A stretch of DNA of 32,000 nucleotides from Candidatus Saccharimonadota bacterium (GTDB lineage Bacteria; Patescibacteriota; Saccharimonadia; Saccharimonadales; UBA4665). This document shows, piece after piece, positions 3,106-18,330 of this stretch. Both the position numbers and the translations under genes were made by a program. The notes under the pieces are model-generated. The model was not told where the DNA came from, searched no databases, and saw only the letters and a program-made list of their open reading frames with translations. The stretch is taken from positions 60,001 to 92,000 of the forward strand of contig CP025011.1 in assembly GCA_002952755.1 (NCBI GenBank). The letters run 5' to 3'. How positions within the stretch are numbered: position 1 is the stretch's first letter; every line of letters starts with the position of its first letter.

Positions 3106-4182
3106 ATGTCTGGCATTGAAGAGTTAGAAGTGAGCCCTCAATGGCTAACAGTTGAAGGTCTGGTGAGTACTGCTGGCATATCTTTTCGTGTACCTTTGAT
3201 GGACCTACAATATGTAGCACCTGACGTAAGAGGCGATCCTTACCACCAGGGGCGGGTAAGTTTTCCCTTTTCTAACGATGTGTGTACAGCGCCCTATTGC
3301 GAGCAACTTGTTGCGCGAACCGAAACCCGGGAATATCAAGATGCTAAGCAGAGAGTTGCCTTACTCGTTGGAGAAAGCGCCCTCGCTGCAAATTTGAAAT
3401 ACACTTCAGAGGAAACGATTATACTTTTGTCTGATTCTCCAGATAATTGCCTATTCATGCAACAGTACGTGGCCGGACTGCGTGAATGTCCAGGGCCGGA
3501 AGAATGGCGCGATCGCCTGATATCCGTGGGGCCAGACGACACCGCAGGTAAGATGGACTTCCAGCTCACACAGTGGCGAAGAGAAGATCGTCCTCACCCG
3601 CTGCAAGATCAGTCTGCCTTTGATGAAGCACAGGAGCTAGCTAGAAAAAAGGTAATAGTACCTTGGCGCGTCGATATACTGGCGCAAAACGATATGGCGA
3701 TGTTAGGCCGGGCCCTGCAGGAGCGCGATGCCTGGGTGACCATGATGAACCTAACGAACGTTCTACCTTATGTCAGACTATCTGTAAACCCTGAGGATTG
3801 CCTGGTAGGACTAAGGGAATTGCCGGTCACCCCCAACGCTCCCATACTGACGACTAGTTTGGGCTTGGGCTCACGTACTGAATCGGACATCATTAATAAA
3901 AAACCGGCAAATATGGTAACTGGGCCCTTCTTTGGACTCGAAAACCTGAAACTAGAAGAAAAGGTTGATATGGAGCGCACCTTAGAAGCTATGGCCAAAG
4001 CCGTACAAGATGGCCATGATATGGAAGATCTGCTGACAGGAAGCAATATCGCGCTCTTTTTCAAGTTAGCTAGAAAGCATCCAAACACTATAGGGGATAA
4101 TATTTTACGGCCAGATTACAATACGCCTCATAGCCCTGATCGTAACCCAGCGTCCGAAGAACCGGCTTCCGATGAAGACTAA
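3106..4182 (+). CDS. Hypothetical protein (orphan), acidic C-terminal tail
   Basis: 358-aa ORF that is the longest in its region. I recognise no motif. Confidence 0.55.
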   Translation: MSGIEELEVSPQWLTVEGLVSTAGISFRVPLMDLQYVAPDVRGDPYHQGRVSFPFSNDVCTAPYCEQLVARTETREYQDAKQRVALLVGESALAANLKYTSEETIILLSDSPDNCLFMQQYVAGLRECPGPEEWRDRLISVGPDDTAGKMDFQLTQWRREDRPHPLQDQSAFDEAQELARKKVIVPWRVDILAQNDMAMLGRALQERDAWVTMMNLTNVLPYVRLSVNPEDCLVGLRELPVTPNAPILTTSLGLGSRTESDIINKKPANMVTGPFFGLENLKLEEKVDMERTLEAMAKAVQDGHDMEDLLTGSNIALFFKLARKHPNTIGDNILRPDYNTPHSPDRNPASEEPASDED

Positions 4183-8612: not shown

Positions 8613-8874
8613 AACATCCTGGATTCCCAAGGATCCTCGAAAAATGGAACATGACTTAGCTGCGTGACTATATAAAAAGGCAGCTAATGCTACCTGGGGC
8701 TTTCAAATTTGGTAGCCATGAGTAGGGCGGATTGGAACATTATTAAGACTGAACTGATCAGCATGCATAAGGTAGTTCAGATGTACCAACAGCATTATCA
8801 GCGGTTAGTCTAAGCGAGGGTAGTTGAACATGGGGTTTTCGTGATTGATACAAAAGGCTACAATAGGAGCAGAG

Positions 8875-9093
8875 ATGGATGAGAAGGTATATGAGGTGAT
8901 TTTGGCTGTACTTGGCCTGCTGACAGCAGCAGCTGCCGGAACATTCATATTTAGCCGACTTAAGATGAAAAAGAAAAATAAAGCTACAAACAGAGTAAAC
9001 CAATTTGGCATCGGTAGCGTAAGGAACTCGGCAAACGTCACGCAAAACGTAGGAAACGACAGTAACGATGACCAGCGTACCAGAGCAAACTAA
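8875..9093 (+). CDS. Single-pass membrane protein with QxGxGxVxN repeat; probable N-terminal part of the effector component
   Basis: ATG at 8875 preceded by AGGAG (8865-8869). TM helix VILAVLGLLTAAAAGTFIF followed by a KMKKKNK stop-transfer. Overlaps the next ORF by 26 nt in another frame. Confidence 0.55.
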   Translation: MDEKVYEVILAVLGLLTAAAAGTFIFSRLKMKKKNKATNRVNQFGIGSVRNSANVTQNVGNDSNDDQRTRAN

Positions 9094-9616
9094 CACCATT
9101 AAACAAAGTGGTATGGGCAATGTGAAGAACATTGTTAATTTTGCCGATCCCAAAAAAGCTTCCAATGAGGTACAGGCCATTATGTCTGTAATAGACTACC
9201 TATCAGGTGAAGTAGAGAAACAATCAGAGCCACTGGACATCAAGAAAGAGCGCGACTGGAACATTAAAATCAATCAGCGCTTTGTGAAATACAGAGATCA
9301 GATTGACGAAGAAGTTACCCAACTGTTGCCGCTATACAAAGATAAATACAAATCTGCCTGGGAATACTCTGGCATCACTGAACCTCGCCGGGACGAGATA
9401 GATGTTTTGCTTTCAATTAGGAGCAAGCAGGAATTGCAGACGACCGGCAACGATCCCATCAAGGGCATCGATAATTTGGTCAAATGGCTTTGTGCCGAGG
9501 CTTCGTTGCATATGGACGATGAGCAGACCTACAGCGAGATGGCAGTGCGGTTCTTTGTGTATATGGAATTCCAGCGTTGCAGCGTATTTCCAAATGGGGT
9601 AGCGGTAGATGAGTAA
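9068..9616 (+). CDS. Helical protein; candidate ABC-3C effector C-terminal module
   Basis: 182-aa ORF. It begins with a second copy of the QxGxGxVxN motif (KQSGMGNVKN). It ends in an ATGAGTAA overlap with the next gene. Confidence 0.6.
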   Translation: MTSVPEQTNTIKQSGMGNVKNIVNFADPKKASNEVQAIMSVIDYLSGEVEKQSEPLDIKKERDWNIKINQRFVKYRDQIDEEVTQLLPLYKDKYKSAWEYSGITEPRRDEIDVLLSIRSKQELQTTGNDPIKGIDNLVKWLCAEASLHMDDEQTYSEMAVRFFVYMEFQRCSVFPNGVAVDE

Positions 9617-9863
9617 TAATGACTTATTTCTTGGCGAGAACGAAGACCTTAAGCTTAGTAGCGTGTATCTAGGTATGCGTATTGTTAATGTGCTTGAGAA
9701 ATCTAAAAAAATGACCATTTATGAAATATTTGAATTCCTGCGTTCGCGCCATTCGGGGGTTAGTTATGGGAACGTTATGAACGCGCTTACATTTCTATAC
9801 CTGGCCGACATAGTGTTGTTTAAGAAGCCATACTTTGAGGTTGTGAGCAATGATAAGGCTTAA
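9609..9863 (+). CDS. 84-aa small winged-helix-like protein; candidate ABC-3C middle component
   Basis: Overlaps both neighbours (8 nt and 14 nt). The pattern MTIYEIFEFLRSRH...VMNALTFLYLADIVLF is typical of a small wHTH. Confidence 0.65.
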   Translation: MSNNDLFLGENEDLKLSSVYLGMRIVNVLEKSKKMTIYEIFEFLRSRHSGVSYGNVMNALTFLYLADIVLFKKPYFEVVSNDKA

Positions 9864-11640
9864 GAAGTTCTACCTAGAGCCTGACGTCCTAGTGGATGGT
9901 AGTTTTGAGCCTGTAGAGTTCAAGGCGGGTATAAATCTAATCATTGGTGATAAATCGAGCGAAGAGTACGACACGAGTCAGCAGAAGAAGATGAATAGTG
10001 TCGGTAAATCTTTGTTTATCGAATTTGTAAACTTTTGCTTACTGAAAGATTACTCGCGATCACGCATAGCCCGTATACCTGGTGAAGTATTGACGGGTGA
10101 TACTTATGCTTGCCTAGAACTCGAGCACGAAACGTCTACCGAGCTAAACACTATTCTTATCAAACGTAGTGTGGGTGGGCGTCTTCCAATGCTAATTTTT
10201 GTTGGCGAAGACGGTTCTGAATTTGAAGAAAAGCAGATAGAGAATGCCAGAGAGTATTTATCACACTTCTTCCTGACTAACGAAGCAGTTACAAAGCCTA
10301 CTCTAAGGCGACTGTTGAGTATATTAATCCGCAATGAAAAGGCTGGCTATGACGATATCCTAAAGCCGGATCCAACATCGGCGGCAAATAGTGCCGATCG
10401 ACTAATCGCCCCTCATGCGTACATGTTTGGCTTTGATCTAGATAAGATTAAATTGGTCGCTGAAATTCGTGATCAAGCTACGAACATTCAGGCAGTTATT
10501 CGAGATGCTAAAGCTCGGATCATAGGTTCTGGACAAAAGTGGCAAGAGGTAAGGTCCTACATACATGAGCTTGAGGCTGAAGTTCAGAAGTTAGATTATA
10601 GTGTCGAGAAGTTACGGCCTGCTGAAGGTGCTTCTCAGTTACTGAATGAAATAGGTGAACTGAATAAGCAGCTTGATACGCTAATAACTGAGAAGTCTTC
10701 TCGCGAAGTTCTAGCGAGAAAGATTAAAGGTCTAGTGCATAGCACCGAGGATGTTGACATTGCCGAACTCAAGCGTGTATATGAGAAATATAAGCAGGGT
10801 CTGGGTGATTTAGTTAGTAAGACTTTTGAACAGACGCTAGATTTTCGTAAGCAAATTGATGAATTCCAGAATGACCTAATGGCAAATAAGCTTACGACTC
10901 TTAACAAAGAAATTGAAGACTTACACCGGGAAATTGATACTATCGATAGCCGCATCGCTAAGGCATACGAAACCATTGGTTACGGTAATACGATTTCTGA
11001 TTTCCGTGTAACTTTACGGCAGCAACAAGAAAGTAATTCTAAGCTTGAACGACTTCGATCTGACTATGAACTAATTGAAACAAAAGAGATCGAAAAAAAG
11101 AAATTACTAGCGCGCTGGCAGCAGCTTGTAAATGAAGTTGAGACACGATTGTTTGAAATTAAGACGAACGTTGACACATTTGAAAATAACCTCGTTGATC
11201 TCCATGGCTATATCTATGGCAACAGAAAATGTCACTTCCGTATTTCGGTTAATGAAAAAGCTAAGAAACAAGTGCTGCAAATTGACTATAGGACTGATTT
11301 AGACGGTGGAGCAAGTTCCGACAGAATTAAAACTTTCATCTACGATGTGCGTCTTATGCTTGATAACTATACCAGTAAGCGGCATCCGGGCTTTCTGATT
11401 CATGACAATGTTTTTGCAGCGGTTGGTCGGAATGACATGGTTAAATCACTTAATTACCTCTATGACGTTGAGCAGAAGCAAGATGGCTTTCAATATATAG
11501 TGGCTATCAATCGTGATGAATTTGAATCGCACGAACAAGAGCTAGATTTTAAGGCCGCAGATAAAATTGTGCTTCAGCTAACACGTGAGCATCCGTTACT
11601 CGGTACGCAGTATACAGAAGTAATACCTGAAAGGGATTAA
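9850..11640 (+). CDS. Coiled-coil ABC/SMC-like ATPase (DUF2326/YydD-like by recollection)
   Basis: 596 aa. FKAGINLIIGD...NSVGKS (P-loop), a heptad-rich region of roughly 250 aa, DGGASSD (signature-like) and GFLIHD (Walker B). Confidence 0.8.
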   Translation: MIRLKKFYLEPDVLVDGSFEPVEFKAGINLIIGDKSSEEYDTSQQKKMNSVGKSLFIEFVNFCLLKDYSRSRIARIPGEVLTGDTYACLELEHETSTELNTILIKRSVGGRLPMLIFVGEDGSEFEEKQIENAREYLSHFFLTNEAVTKPTLRRLLSILIRNEKAGYDDILKPDPTSAANSADRLIAPHAYMFGFDLDKIKLVAEIRDQATNIQAVIRDAKARIIGSGQKWQEVRSYIHELEAEVQKLDYSVEKLRPAEGASQLLNEIGELNKQLDTLITEKSSREVLARKIKGLVHSTEDVDIAELKRVYEKYKQGLGDLVSKTFEQTLDFRKQIDEFQNDLMANKLTTLNKEIEDLHREIDTIDSRIAKAYETIGYGNTISDFRVTLRQQQESNSKLERLRSDYELIETKEIEKKKLLARWQQLVNEVETRLFEIKTNVDTFENNLVDLHGYIYGNRKCHFRISVNEKAKKQVLQIDYRTDLDGGASSDRIKTFIYDVRLMLDNYTSKRHPGFLIHDNVFAAVGRNDMVKSLNYLYDVEQKQDGFQYIVAINRDEFESHEQELDFKAADKIVLQLTREHPLLGTQYTEVIPERD

Positions 11641-11646
11641 TAGGCG

Positions 11647-13128
11647 CTAGCTCTTGGACGCGGAGGGCTTATTATCGTTCCTAGCGTCTATCACGATAAT
11701 GTTTTTGGCATCAGTGAGCGATAGCTCGTACAGCAGGGCCTTGACCGTTTCTTGCTCTTTGGCAGTGTAACAGATGATAACAATAACCTTTTTATTAGTA
11801 TTATTTGCTTTTAGGTAGACCTCAGTCTGTTTTTCAATGCCGTGCCTGAGCTGGCTGTTGCTCGCGAGCTTGAACTCCACGATGGATTTGTCGAGTGCGC
11901 CAAAGGAAACAGTGCCATCAACGGGGCCGCGCCCATTATTAGGTTCACGGTTGAAGTCGTACCTAGTGCCATACCAGACCATGGTAAATAGTAGCTGCAC
12001 GGTTTTCTCGTTGCTTGGCTTTTTGGCTAGCTTGTCGTTAATGATCTTGTAGCCGTCTTTGTTCTCGATACAGTCTTTGAGGTATTCGGCGCGTTTAATC
12101 GCTTCTTCCAAGCTCCCCGCTGGTTGGGTCAAGAATTCGCTGTTCTTTTGTAGCAGTTCAGTAAGTGCCTGCGCCTCTTCTACCTTTGATTCGATTTCCT
12201 GCACCCGCTCTATGCTTACCGCGGTAGCTCGCTCGCCCCTCTGTTCCTTGAGCTTAATGTAGTAATCGATAAGTTCTGGAAACTCATGAATGGTAGCGAC
12301 GGCAGCCTTATTACGCTCTTTCTTTGTAGGGCCTTTCTTTTTGCGCGTTGGCGGGGGAAGTTGGGATCGGAAGTAGTTATTGACCTGATCGCGTAGCTGC
12401 TCGTTGGAAATTGCCGATGGTATTTCATCGAAATAACCAACAAGGTCTTCTCGGTTAATCCATGTATCATCTTTGGTCAGAATATTCCTTGGCGACAGAA
12501 GAACGTAGTCGTCATTAAAGACAGGGAGGGTATACGTTTTATCAACCCATGTTTCAGTCGTGTAATTAAAGTCAACGCGTCGCACGGTGAACTTACGCAG
12601 GCGGTGCGCGGGAATATTGGCCGCGGCAAACTTTTCAGTGTAGTCCAGCAGGAAGCCTTTAATAAGATTAGTTGTGAAGTCGCTGATGTTATCTTTGCCA
12701 ATATTGTCTTTGACGAGGCAGAGCTTTTCGAGGTGACTCCCGGCGGTAATTTCCTCATCACCAAACGTGGTGAAGATCTTGTGTAGGTTGGCATGTAAGT
12801 TTCTGGCGAAATCCATACCTAGCCCGCTGCCGGAATTGCCTAGTACCGTGTAGCCAAGCCAGTTTTGCTGAACTTCTTTAAAGCAGTACCACGCTCGGAG
12901 CTCACCGTCTGTAACAGTTGCTTTGCTGATGGACTTATCCCGAAGAAAGCGTAGGTACTGGATTATGTTATCGTGAAGGGCTCGATAGATTTTGTCCTCG
13001 CTGTTAAACAGAAGAAAAGGGTCTATGAACAGAGGAAGATCGGTAACCAAGGAGATGTCGATTGTGCCGTAATCGTACAGTGTTTGCTTATTTACCCCAA
13101 AATAATCCGAGAAGTAGAGCTTTATCAT
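11647..13128 (-). CDS. Large protein with a C-terminal RecB/Cas4-like PD-(D/E)xK nuclease domain
   Basis: 493 aa. GPVD(404)G...IVE(418)FK(420)...Q(434)TEVY(438) gives D, ExK and QxxxY in canonical order and spacing. The N-terminal ~380 aa are unassigned (conserved-looking DLPLFIDPFLLF). Confidence 0.75.
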   Translation of the reverse strand: MIKLYFSDYFGVNKQTLYDYGTIDISLVTDLPLFIDPFLLFNSEDKIYRALHDNIIQYLRFLRDKSISKATVTDGELRAWYCFKEVQQNWLGYTVLGNSGSGLGMDFARNLHANLHKIFTTFGDEEITAGSHLEKLCLVKDNIGKDNISDFTTNLIKGFLLDYTEKFAAANIPAHRLRKFTVRRVDFNYTTETWVDKTYTLPVFNDDYVLLSPRNILTKDDTWINREDLVGYFDEIPSAISNEQLRDQVNNYFRSQLPPPTRKKKGPTKKERNKAAVATIHEFPELIDYYIKLKEQRGERATAVSIERVQEIESKVEEAQALTELLQKNSEFLTQPAGSLEEAIKRAEYLKDCIENKDGYKIINDKLAKKPSNEKTVQLLFTMVWYGTRYDFNREPNNGRGPVDGTVSFGALDKSIVEFKLASNSQLRHGIEKQTEVYLKANNTNKKVIVIICYTAKEQETVKALLYELSLTDAKNIIVIDARNDNKPSASKS

Positions 13129-14941: not shown

Positions 14942-15193
14942 ATGAAAGCTATTGGTAAAATGTCTGACCGCGAGCTAGATGCCCTAAAGGATAAGCTCAC
15001 TAAAGAGATTGGCCAAAGAGTGCGCGCCGAACGCGAAAAGAAGAAGCTATCACAAGAAGAGCTTGCAGATATGGCGGGCTTTTATAGAACATACGTGGGG
15101 CATATCGAAACGGGTACATATTCACCCAGCGCCTTTACACTATGGCGCATTGCTAAGGCGCTAAATATTGATCCTGGCAAGCTACTCAAGTAG
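14942..15193 (+). CDS. XRE-family helix-turn-helix transcriptional regulator
   Basis: 83 aa with GGGAGG upstream. LSQEELADMAGFYRTYVGHIETGTYSPSAFTLWRIAKAL is a classic Cro/C1 HTH. Confidence 0.8.
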   Translation: MKAIGKMSDRELDALKDKLTKEIGQRVRAEREKKKLSQEELADMAGFYRTYVGHIETGTYSPSAFTLWRIAKALNIDPGKLLK

Positions 15194-16746: not shown

Positions 16747-18297
16747 ATGGATTGTGTTGTATATGTAAGGGTGTCGACGGACGAACAAGTGCAGGGTACA
16801 AGCCTGGATATGCAGCAAAAGGCGTGTGCGGATTTTGCCGAGGGCAAGGGCTGGAATCTTCCAAAAGAGAATATATTCCGTGACGAAGGTGAATCAGCGA
16901 AAGCTACGAATCGGCCAGAGCTGCTTCGCATGTTGGAGTTCTGTCGCAGAGCTAAAGGCTCGGTTCAGTGCTGCATTGTATGGAAATTAGACCGTTTCGC
17001 GCGCAACTCGGACGACCACGTTATGTTGCGGGCGGTGTTACGAAAGAGCGGTGTAACGCTCATGTCGGTCACAGAGCCCATAGACGAAAGTCCAACGGGC
17101 AAGCTCATGGAAACAGTGCTGTCTGGCTTTGCGCAGTTCGATAATGAGGTTCGTACGCACCGTACGACCGAGGGCATGAAGAAACGGCTAGAGCAGGGTG
17201 GTTGGCCGCATGATGCGCCCATTGGTTACATCAAAGACCGGACGCCGCTTGGTGTTACGACTATCGCACCCCATCCGGATTTAGCGCCAAAAATGAAACT
17301 ATTTTTGGAGACCTTTGCAACTGGTCAGTATACGGTACGTCAGGCGGCCGACCTCGCATATGAATTAGGTATACGTAACGGTAAGGGTGGCAAACGCACC
17401 TGGCAGACTATCGAAAACACACTCAAGAATCCGATCTACGCAGGCTACATTCAATCAAAGTATACGAATGGTAATCGGTATGTCGGCCTCCACAAGCCGC
17501 TTATCAGTGAACTGACTTTCAATAAAAATCAGCGCATCTTAGCTGGCAAGCAAAAATTATTCACTAAAAGCGATGAGAGCGACTATCCACTGCGCCGTGA
17601 TTTCCTGTGCTGTGCATATTGCGGCAACTTTGTAACCGGCAGCGCTCCTAAAGGTGCAAGCGGCATTAAATACCCGCGTTATGGCTGCATGTACTGTAAG
17701 ACTTCTGTTGTTGGTAAAAAAGTTAGTAAGTCTAGTGAAGAAATCCACAAAGAGTTTACGGAGATATTGTCGCGCGTTCGCTACAAAGACGGACGGCTTA
17801 AAGTATTTAAGACGATTGTGCTGACGCGCTGGTGTGATGAATATGATGAAGCGCTTAGTACCGCACACCAAATCAATAAAGAAATCGAAACGCTACAAGC
17901 TGAACGCGCTCGCACGATTCGTAAGTTTACCAAAGACGAGATTAGCTATGCTGATAAAGAAACGGCCGTGAAAGAAATTGATGCGGAGCTGTCGGATTAC
18001 CTGCAAAAGAAAGTCGAAGCCGACGAGTATGCCGACCAAAAAGAACAGGTTATAGATAATGCGTTGCTGTTTATGAAAAGCCCCGCAGAGTTTTGGAACA
18101 GAGCACCTGTACAGATACAAAAGGCTGTGCAGCGGACACTTTTCCCACGTGGACTGGCCTATGACTTTGAGACGGGTTTTGGAACTATCGAATTGAACAA
18201 ATCGTATCTGTTAATACAAAAATTAGCGCCCGAAAGCGCTAAAAATCCTATTGTGGTAGCGGCGATAGGACTTGAACCTATGACCCCAGGCTTATGA
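16747..18297 (+). CDS. Large serine recombinase (resolvase/invertase N-domain + recombinase domain + zinc ribbon + coiled coil)
   Basis: VYVRVSTDEQ (catalytic Ser), DRFARN, CCAYCGN...YGCMYCK (CxxC...CxxC), then a coiled coil EIETLQAERARTIRKF. The last 44 nt overlap the antisense tRNA. Confidence 0.85.
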   Translation: MDCVVYVRVSTDEQVQGTSLDMQQKACADFAEGKGWNLPKENIFRDEGESAKATNRPELLRMLEFCRRAKGSVQCCIVWKLDRFARNSDDHVMLRAVLRKSGVTLMSVTEPIDESPTGKLMETVLSGFAQFDNEVRTHRTTEGMKKRLEQGGWPHDAPIGYIKDRTPLGVTTIAPHPDLAPKMKLFLETFATGQYTVRQAADLAYELGIRNGKGGKRTWQTIENTLKNPIYAGYIQSKYTNGNRYVGLHKPLISELTFNKNQRILAGKQKLFTKSDESDYPLRRDFLCCAYCGNFVTGSAPKGASGIKYPRYGCMYCKTSVVGKKVSKSSEEIHKEFTEILSRVRYKDGRLKVFKTIVLTRWCDEYDEALSTAHQINKEIETLQAERARTIRKFTKDEISYADKETAVKEIDAELSDYLQKKVEADEYADQKEQVIDNALLFMKSPAEFWNRAPVQIQKAVQRTLFPRGLAYDFETGFGTIELNKSYLLIQKLAPESAKNPIVVAAIGLEPMTPGL

Positions 18298-18330
18298 GTC
18301 CTGTGCTCTAACCAGCTGAGCTACGCCGCC
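18254..18330 (-). tRNA. tRNA with CAU anticodon (elongator Met or Ile2; undecided), CCA encoded
   Basis: Reverse complement is GGCGGCGTAGCTCAGCTGGTTAGAGCACAGGACTCATAAGCCTGGGGTCATAGGTTCAAGTCCTATCGCCGCTACCA. It folds as a cloverleaf with D-arm GCTC/GAGC, T-arm ATAGG/CCTAT and anticodon loop CTCATAA. Confidence 0.85.

Follow-up and report, generated by a model that had tools for sequence, protein, structure and literature searches.

A four-gene short-Lamassu (ABC-3C) locus in a Saccharimonadota genome, with an effector arm apparently split between a small membrane protein and a motif-sharing adaptor

What fills the place of the effector in a Lamassu-type operon whose adaptor has no enzymatic domain? 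The question is raised by four overlapping plus-strand genes, designated here g1 to g4 in the order in which they are read, at positions 8875-11640 of a 32,000-nucleotide stretch of the genome of a Candidatus Saccharimonadota bacterium (GenBank assembly GCA_002952755.1, contig CP025011.1, positions 60,001 to 92,000; the whole stretch is referred to as the window). Judged by the families to which its proteins belong, the locus is a four-gene short-Lamassu system, that is, an ABC (ATP-binding cassette) three-component (ABC-3C) system, of the DUF2326/YydD-MC6 subfamily, with an effector arm split into two proteins: a small protein with one transmembrane (TM) helix (g1) and an adaptor that consists mainly of a C-terminal domain, or CTD (g2). 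The tail of the former and the N-terminus of the latter carry a common motif, and this motif co-varies between the two proteins from locus to locus.

ABC-3C systems are now placed in the Lamassu superfamily (type II Lamassu, DdmABC), which is present in roughly 15% of prokaryotic genomes and for which anti-phage and anti-plasmid activity has been demonstrated, the phenotype having been shown for Cap4 and lipase Lamassu. The remark of the initial annotation that no phenotype or mechanism had been shown for the class is thus outdated, given the phage and plasmid assays and the cryo-electron microscopy structures published in 2025. In these structures, two copies of LmuB (the ATPase) and one of LmuC (the middle component) sequester the C-terminal oligomerisation domain of LmuA, and DNA-end sensing liberates LmuA to form an active tetramer. 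The N-terminal effector domain of LmuA makes no contacts in the complex and is freely exchangeable, and the effectors assemble as closed cyclic oligomers, not filaments. A survey has also described 'short' Lamassu systems, with an LmuB of about 600 aa and HNH, SMEK or lipase effectors. For the DUF2326-MC6 or PDC-M68 type, to which the present locus belongs, a literature search found no experimental paper.

The four open reading frames (ORFs) were all recovered at the coordinates and with the junctions first described: g2 starts 26 nt upstream of the g1 stop, so that the two overlap by 26 nt in different frames, g2 and g3 overlap in ATGAGTAA at 9609-9616, and g3 and g4 overlap by 14 nt. The ATG of g1 is preceded by AGGAG, a Shine-Dalgarno sequence; the mechanical list of ORFs starts this gene earlier, at a TTG at 8845, and public gene callers also call the 72-aa product. 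A scan for σ70 promoters upstream of g1 found none. Over 8.5-12 kb the GC content is 0.40-0.44, compared with about 0.47-0.50 on either side, in agreement with the AT-rich patch noted at the outset. About 60 related loci have enough sequence, and all of them show this gene order.

The ATPase, the middle component and the adaptor

The size of the g4 product (596 aa) is that of a 'short' LmuB. It matches Pfam DUF2326 with 66.5 bits (cut-off 28.7), PADLOC PDC-M68B over its full length (4.5e-49) and PADLOC LmuB over nearly its full length (1.4e-11, residues 49-561). JGI names its 64 homologues 'YydD (DUF2326 family)', so that the DUF2326/YydD type to which the initial annotation had assigned this protein is borne out, and the sequence motifs quoted from it (FKAGINLIIGD, NSVGKS with K53, DGGASSD and GFLIHD with D519) were all found. 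Among the NCBIfam equivalogs of RecN, RecF and SMC none was matched, the similarities at the level of the coiled coil lying far under the cut-offs, so that the clustering with these housekeeping proteins which the initial annotation had named as fatal to its reading is not borne out. The AlphaFold2 model of g4, based on the 64 homologues, is confident, with a predicted local distance difference test (pLDDT) score of 87.4. Its best Foldseek match in the PDB is 9a6c, an integrative model of Bacillus subtilis YydD-YydB (E 5e-27, TM 0.60), followed at about 1e-12 by Salmonella LmuB (9hqu, 9hqx) and the LmuAB-DNA complex 9ux7, on a level with Rad50 and SMC heads. Sequence and profile searches of the PDB with the ATPase, the CTD and MC6 returned coiled-coil noise only, and no CxxC zinc hook is present in the sequence of the g4 coiled coil.

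The nucleotide-binding motifs of g4 are strongly conserved. G52-K53-S54 of Walker A are invariant, as are H518 and D519 of Walker B in the 64 homologues, and N520, which stands where the catalytic Glu would be expected, is nearly so (at least 90%). LmuB proteins likewise do without the catalytic Glu of Walker B, which has been linked to very slow hydrolysis, and the published Walker B consensus of short Lamassu is hhhhD[Q/S/T/E]. The Asn after the Walker B Asp is, to go by the alignment, a further variant on this consensus, contributed by the DUF2326-MC6 subfamily.

The product of g3 matches Pfam PF20293, MC6 ('ABC-3C middle component 6'), with 30.7 bits (cut-off 27.2). NCBI labels its plasmid relatives 'ABC-three component system middle component 6', and in every locus with enough sequence its gene stands between those of the CTD protein and the ATPase. 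The Pfam comparison that had been proposed thus returned DUF2326 for g4 and MC6 for g3, both above cut-off; together with the CTD homology of the 182-aa g2 product this bears out the membership in ABC-3C, and the placement of the locus in a known, characterised class (ABC-3C/Lamassu) is supported.

Neither g1 nor g2 has a match in Pfam, NCBIfam or PADLOC, and no PADLOC model matched MC6. Just 7 close homologues of g2 occur among 5.8 billion proteins, and a profile search of 1.84 billion representatives yielded 143 representative clusters, about 43 of which stand alone, with lengths of 175-195 aa. The others are mostly proteins of about 320 aa in which the g2 domain lies C-terminal to Pfam SMEK_N, a nuclease domain, and in a few an HNH nuclease takes the place of SMEK. 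Related loci were harvested with a 10-sequence subset of the CTD alignment, since the 21-sequence set was too diverse; of the 71 obtained, every one with room has the order CTD protein, MC6, ATPase, and about 45 related loci have a g2-type helical domain behind a SMEK or HNH nuclease. The 84-aa and 182-aa proteins thus always accompany such ATPases, and the possibility, also raised beforehand, that they have no co-occurring homologues falls away. SMEK- or HNH-MC6-DUF2326 triads are found on plasmids of cultured Rhizobium, Sphingomonas and Agrobacterium, where the NCBI annotation already reads ABC-3C. Because the g2 domain occurs at the C-terminus of SMEK and HNH effectors, followed by MC6 and the ATPase, g2 can be regarded as a CTD-only LmuA. 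Comparison of the loci shows the slot ahead of the g2-type CTD to be modular, occupied in some loci by a nuclease (SMEK or HNH) and in others by a short motif.

The five-helix domain of g2 is presumed to bind LmuB and LmuC and to oligomerise. What precedes it is not an enzymatic effector domain, as would be expected of LmuA, but just a 29-residue N-terminus that is predicted to be disordered (pLDDT below 50). Foldseek found nothing better than E = 0.5 for the g2 model in the PDB, and the fold is therefore considered unlike those of the solved LmuA CTDs. Assignment of g2 to Pfam CTD10 or CTD11 was rejected, the matches being insignificant (the best E-value, 0.015, was to CTD10 and concerned a minority of members).

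A motif common to the membrane protein and the adaptor

The small protein encoded by g1 consists of an acidic N-terminus (MDE), one TM helix (hydropathy 2.24 over 17 aa), a basic patch (KMKKKNK) and an N/G/Q-rich tail, which is expected to be cytoplasmic according to the positive-inside rule, given net charges of -2 on the N-terminal and +6 on the C-terminal side of the helix. It is encoded by a gene of its own, which is conserved throughout the five loci of the window's family and is under purifying selection, with ratios of non-synonymous to synonymous substitution rates (dN/dS) of 0.19 and 0.06. All 16 distinct CTD-only loci, and none of the 39 nuclease-fusion loci, have a collinear upstream ORF composed of a TM helix and a tail, so that its association with CTD-only adaptors is exclusive. 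By its position, g1 fills the niche that is held by nuclease domains in the sister systems. The relation of g1 to g2 varies among loci, as all three relative frames, TAA, TAG and TGA stops and spacings from -26 to +12 nt are encountered, each gene having its own ATG, and a fused g1-g2 form is absent from the 143 representative clusters. The initial annotation had not decided between one upstream product and two as the source of the TM helix and of the all-helical module; these elements are encoded by two conserved genes that are never fused, while the 'repeat' of its supposed 'TM/repeat' effector turned out to be the motif that these two proteins have in common.

Across loci, the small TM proteins measure 51-72 aa and have one helix each, hydrophobic and N-terminal, with D or E at position 2-3 in 11 of 16. 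Outside the window's family, this helix contains a recurrent, glycine-zipper-like G-[AG]-[LIV]-[AS]-G-G-[IF]-T-[AS] (for example in the loci L009, at 1249-1296, L016, L015 and L076), a type of segment that suggests helix-helix packing in a membrane oligomer.

In the window, the g1 tail NRVNQFGIGSVRNSAN resembles the g2 N-terminus NTIKQSGMGNVKNIVN, and the motifs of the two proteins align at z = 4.6 relative to composition-preserving shuffles, 1 of 2000 of which reaches the score. The match exists at the protein level, with 7 identical residues, just 3 of them with a common codon. Within the window's family, Q43, G45, I46, G47, V49 and N51 are invariant in the g1 motif, and Q13, G15, G17 and N21 in that of g2. 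The same arrangement is seen in every distant CTD-only locus that was reached, where the variant of the motif differs between loci and matches within each of them, as illustrated by the pairs QKSSGNSSPNIVGDSNRIN / NQNTTGNDSPAIAGDNNRVN in L009, KQSSKGDNSPNVNGSGNTI / QQRSEGDNSPNIDGNGNHI in L014 and KQQSKGDSALNVI / VQKSSGDRALNIV in L015. Cognate motifs score z = 3.2-21 above composition-preserving shuffles, the two motifs of a locus are reciprocal best matches in 7 of the 8 loci that do not belong to the window's family, and the observed total score was reached in 0 of 100,000 trials in which loci were randomly re-paired. Three additional divergent loci, tested prospectively, all matched (z = 7-12). 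The comparison across loci thus shows that the g1 and g2 motifs co-vary.

Recent duplication of DNA was considered as the sole cause of the match between the motifs, and was found to hold for one locus only, L024. In 12 of 13 loci checked, the motif is kept at the protein level with mostly different codons for the identical residues (46-67% nt identity), L024 alone showing fresh gene conversion (96% nt identity). An old duplication followed by independent drift would make cognate and non-cognate motifs equally similar, and the observed excess of cognate similarity therefore points to co-evolution or concerted evolution. L024 itself (3880-4040; Falkowbacteria metagenome-assembled genome (MAG) MFGB01000023; likewise L041 and L042) has a TM tail and an adaptor N-terminus that agree in 23 of 25 residues at 96% nt identity, including a 21-residue run that is identical in both proteins, and its g1 and g2 are in one frame with a single TAA between them. 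This looks like recent gene conversion that holds both motifs identical.

Such an arrangement recalls amyloid signalling pairs. In these, a motif of some 25 aa, with a high content of Q, N, G, V and I and a low one of K, P and L, is present at the C-terminus of a membrane-targeting effector and at the N-terminus of its partner, the two are encoded by adjacent collinear genes that often overlap, and 'all-in-one' relatives exist that have an effector domain in the place of the motif. Bell and HeLo effectors, moreover, start with a hydrophobic helix in which position 2-3 is acidic, and in Escherichia coli amyloid templating drives an antiphage abortive infection (Abi) system, the Bab/Agp pair, with the motif BASS11 and a sensor that is not an NLR (nucleotide-binding, leucine-rich repeat) protein. 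Here, all 16 distinct loci have adjacent collinear genes with the motif at the effector C-terminus and the partner N-terminus. The motifs measure 17-28 aa and are enriched in N (4.6x), G (1.9x), Q (1.7x) and V (1.5x) and depleted in L (0.26x) and P (0.52x) but not in K, many of them keeping a conserved Pro. The SMEK-CTD and HNH-CTD fusions correspond to the 'all-in-one' relatives, 39 of 39 such loci being without the small TM gene. The partner is not an NLR/STAND protein with an NB-ARC or NACHT domain; it is the CTD adaptor of an ABC ATPase system.

Coordinates and genomic setting

The positions of the four genes, of their principal elements and of the nearby recombinase are collected in Table 1.

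Table 1. Coordinates of the operon, its sequence elements and the neighbouring recombinase, counted from the first letter of the window
Feature	Positions	Strand	Remarks
g1	8875-9093	+	72 aa; small membrane protein, putative effector
g1 TM helix, residues 8-27	8896-8955	+	VILAVLGLLTAAAAGTFIFS; small-xxx-small packing motifs
g1 C-terminal motif, residues 39-62	8989-9060	+	NRVNQFGIGSVRNSANVTQNVGND; aligns to the g2 N-terminal motif
g2	9068-9616	+	182 aa; CTD-only LmuA-like adaptor
g2 N-terminal motif, residues 9-28	9092-9151	+	NTIKQSGMGNVKNIVNFADP; cognate to the g1 tail, predicted disordered
g2 all-helical domain, residues 30-176	9155-9595	+	five helices; AlphaFold2 core pLDDT ~87
g3	9609-9863	+	84 aa; middle component MC6, LmuC-equivalent
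g4	9850-11640	+	596 aa; short-LmuB/YydD-type Rad50-like ABC ATPase, folded-back coiled coil
g4 Walker A / P-loop	9994-10011	+	NSVGKS, K53; V51, G52, K53 invariant in 64 homologues
g4 coiled-coil insert, ~residues 197-456	10438-11217	+	long helices 197-456 in the model
g4 deviant Walker B, residues 515-520	11392-11409	+	FLIHDN; D519 followed by N520 instead of catalytic Glu
Large serine recombinase	16747-18297	+	3' end overlaps tRNA-Met 18254-18330 (-)

The wider window is chromosomal, with TilS, FtsH, MurJ and LepA downstream. The overlap of the recombinase gene with tRNA-Met is a typical integration-site arrangement and makes it probable that the operon resides on an integrated element; an att-like repeat of the tRNA-Met region was not found within the window. 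The distance of about 3.5 kb given in the initial annotation for this recombinase is correct if measured from the end of the neighbouring 493-aa gene (3.6 kb), but from the ATPase stop it amounts to 5.1 kb. The 493-aa gene itself (11647-13128, minus strand), which had been taken for a nuclease gene back to back with the operon, is convergent (tail to tail), lying 6 nt from the ATPase stop, and not divergent. Its N-terminal half matches PADLOC PDC-M36A (1e-22), and its C-terminus is weakly Shedu/SduA-like with a D...EFK nuclease-type motif. As a component of the present system it was rejected, since it is not conserved beside the system in the other loci examined, and for the same reason it is probably an independent defence candidate. 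Further along, a helix-turn-helix protein resembling the 'control proteins' of restriction-modification (RM) systems (14942-15193) is followed by a 148-aa ORF (region to 15698) with about ten 24-nt tandem repeats that encode STAHGGG[L/M].

Related loci adjoin serine recombinases, ParE/RHH toxin-antitoxin genes, RadC/TrbC, a large helicase, an RM system and phage portal genes. Individual examples are the serine recombinase with ParE/RHH in L003-L005 (L003, 2916-4424), the TrbC and type IV secretion system (T4SS) pilin genes of L008 (5230-5580), the phage portal genes of L075 (1-3000) and the methylase and ResIII RM pair of L076 (1-2704). These phage, RM, recombinase and T4SS neighbours of the sister systems indicate that the cassette travels on phages, islands and conjugative elements. 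Where taxonomy is available, the CTD-only loci belong to MAGs of Parcubacteria, Peribacteria and Falkowbacteria, and most nuclease-fusion loci to Bacteroidota, Acidobacteriota, Chlorobiota and Alphaproteobacteria. A search of E. coli genomes gave nothing close to the window locus, and a scan of genome contigs with the ATPase alone gave no match.

A possible mechanism, its alternatives and the relation to known systems

It can be proposed that the locus brings about abortive infection by release of the adaptor, amyloid-like templating of the membrane protein and killing of the cell. On the model of the Lamassu structures from Salmonella and Vibrio, the helical CTD of the 182-aa adaptor would be sequestered by an LmuB-like ATPase dimer together with MC6 until aberrant or foreign DNA (ends, hairpins) causes an ATP-dependent engagement of the heads that releases the adaptor; slow hydrolysis is expected owing to N520 in place of the catalytic Glu. 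Free adaptors would oligomerise via the CTD and thereby cluster their disordered, N/G/Q-rich N-terminal motifs, which may nucleate a cross-beta, amyloid-like fold and template the matching cytoplasmic tails of g1. The polymerised tails would in turn cluster the Gly/Ala-rich TM helices, thereby breaching the membrane and killing or arresting the infected cell. The logic would be that of HET-S/NWD2 and of E. coli Bab/Agp, here driven by an SMC-like DNA sensor and ending in an effector made of one helix and a motif. Every biochemical step of the chain is inferred rather than observed, from assembly of the complex and liberation of the adaptor, through oligomerisation in this CTD family and the formation of amyloid, to the damage to the membrane, and so is the trigger; we consider the proposal about evenly poised between right and wrong. 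That an SMC/Rad50-type (Lamassu) sensor signals by prion-like amyloid templating from a CTD-only adaptor to a one-helix membrane executioner is put forward tentatively, its probability falling somewhat short of even.

Several points weigh against amyloid templating. The g1 protein looks constitutively inserted in the membrane, so that it would have to be kept harmless before activation, and it has one helix, not the helical bundle of Bell or HeLo effectors. The motifs are atypical in comparison with the published ones, as K is not depleted (1.16x) and the conserved Pro of many of them (SPN) is unusual. Equal co-variation would result from a finite homotypic beta-interaction or from the mimicry of a common binding site. 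Furthermore, the CTD of g2 has no detectable likeness, in fold or sequence, to the solved LmuA CTDs (CTD7, CTD12) among the PDB entries searched, so that both sequestration and oligomerisation are extrapolated from a different CTD family. Finally, both the activity of the DUF2326-MC6 subfamily and the formation of amyloid are putative.

These points give room to other explanations. The motifs might pair as beta-strands in a stoichiometric manner and tether g1 to the adaptor, holding the Lamassu complex at the membrane until activation opens a pore without any self-propagating polymer. Motif co-variation and gene adjacency fit such finite docking equally well, Lamassu effectors are closed cyclic oligomers and not filaments, and the conserved Pro and retained Lys are unusual for amyloid cores. 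Heteromeric strand pairing, however, does not in general need identical partner sequences, as in-register cross-beta stacking does, and the composition, length, disorder and 'all-in-one' relatives fit published amyloid signalling pairs; finite docking, which with the inverted logic below is one of the two main rivals, is regarded as rather unlikely. The logic could also be inverted, with the adaptor motif capping the g1 tail as an antitoxin or mimic, or with both competing for one site, so that withdrawal of the adaptor lets g1 self-assemble and kill. Masking or one shared pocket would also select for matching motifs, a small, constitutively membrane-inserted protein needs restraint, and the translational coupling of g1 and g2 is tight. 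We nevertheless hold this inversion to be improbable, because the N-terminal effector domain in the solved Lamassu complexes has no contacts and is activated by liberation and oligomerisation, and because the nucleases found at the adaptor position in the relatives are positive effectors, not inhibitors. More improbable still is that g1 serves only as an anchor, localising the sensor to the membrane (for example to DNA injected at the envelope), with the true effector elsewhere, possibly the 493-aa putative nuclease; its PDC-M36A match and weak Shedu-like nuclease tail would suit this role, and g1 has no recognisable toxic domain, but the 493-aa gene is beside the system in no other locus examined, and g1 sits in exactly the nuclease niche (16/16 vs 0/39).

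Two simpler accounts deny that there is a split effector at all. The 26-nt overlap in different frames in the window could indicate that a single effector gene has been divided into g1 and g2 by a frameshift or by recoding, and one motif in both could look like an internal repeat, in which case the locus would be an ordinary, possibly decaying three-gene ABC-3C system. This is already contradicted by the separate ORFs in 16 of 16 distinct loci with their three frames, three stops and own ATGs, by the lack of a fused form in the 143 clusters and by the purifying selection on g1, and has very little probability left. Least credible, to the point of being negligible, is that the ATPase is a housekeeping RecN, RecF or SMC repair protein flanked by incidental small ORFs: its fold does resemble Rad50 and SMC heads, but an identity of this kind was rejected in view of the NCBIfam nulls, the best matches being DUF2326/YydD, PDC-M68B and LmuB, and of the strict linkage to MC6 and CTD genes in mobile and defence contexts.

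If amyloid templating is the correct reading, an amyloid-signalling arm would here be seen for the first time on an ABC ATPase defence system, the executioner would be the smallest known amyloid-controlled killing protein, amyloid signalling would extend to the candidate phyla radiation (CPR)/Patescibacteria, and the 'effector-less' Lamassu clade would be explained, providing a ready hypothesis for Lamassu systems reported without an effector. SMC-like DNA sensing and amyloid signalling, fields studied apart, would be joined. It would follow, too, that gene callers and defence-system finders overlook a real effector when it is a tiny ORF. According to the Lamassu model, any effector can be plugged in ahead of the CTD if oligomerisation activates it, and a 20-residue motif would be the simplest test-bed of that model. 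The locus-specific variants of the motif would offer natural orthogonal signalling pairs for synthetic biology. A literature search found no paper tying amyloid to Lamassu, and the work on E. coli Bab/Agp makes no mention of ABC or SMC systems; the principle is nonetheless less novel in that amyloid signalling has already been shown in the antiphage Abi of Bab/Agp. What is new is a Lamassu variant of four genes in which the membrane effector is split and coupled through a motif, a variant that is undescribed in the literature surveyed (a survey that does not extend to the founding ABC-3C paper, Krishnan et al. 2020).

Among known systems, the SMEK and HNH short Lamassu (Rhizobium sp. ZX09, NZ_CP031365; Sphingomonas taxi STP2; A. 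tumefaciens pTiQ15_94) have the same ATPase, MC6 and CTD families, the gene order and the overlapping genes in common with the present locus, and are likewise associated with plasmids, mobile elements and defence islands. They differ in having three genes, with a nuclease fused ahead of the CTD, whereas here a motif of about 20 aa takes the place of the nuclease and the small TM protein that bears its cognate comes from a fourth gene. LmuACB/DdmABC of Salmonella enterica and Vibrio cholerae (Cap4-CTD7-MC3) resemble it in their SMC/Rad50-like LmuB without the Walker B Glu, their small middle component and the coupling of the effector through a C-terminal domain, the fold of the ATPase matching at about 1e-12. 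Their CTD and MC families are different, with no sequence or fold match for g2 or MC6, their Walker B reads D-Q and not D-N, and the present locus has no enzymatic effector domain. Lamassu Clade O, which is described as 'effector-less' and is unexplained, has an LmuA reduced to its CTD together with intact LmuB and LmuC; the likeness to it is one of layout, which does not establish one family, and its paper reports neither a small TM gene nor a shared motif. B. subtilis YydD, with YydB (9a6c), is the best structural match of g4. YydB is an effector of the phosphoesterase type, and the YydD/YydB system is not known to have a TM or motif arm. The ATPase also matches that of PADLOC PDC-M68, a computational candidate only, for which a literature search found no paper.

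With regard to the signalling arm, the closest parallels are Bab/Agp, Bell/BASS-NLR and HET-S/NWD2. As in these pairs, the genes are adjacent, collinear and often overlapping, an N/Q/G-rich motif of about 20 aa lies at the C-terminus of the effector and at the N-terminus of the partner, 'all-in-one' relatives exist, and the effector begins with a hydrophobic N-terminal helix with an acidic residue at position 2-3. Bab contains I-G-S-V, and GIGSV occurs in g1 of the window, a resemblance to be taken as a lead only. Unlike in those pairs, the partner is the adaptor of an SMC-like ABC ATPase and not an NLR or a TPR-GreA/B-PIN protein; and unlike the Bell effectors with their bundle, g1 has a single helix, its hosts including CPR/Patescibacteria MAGs.

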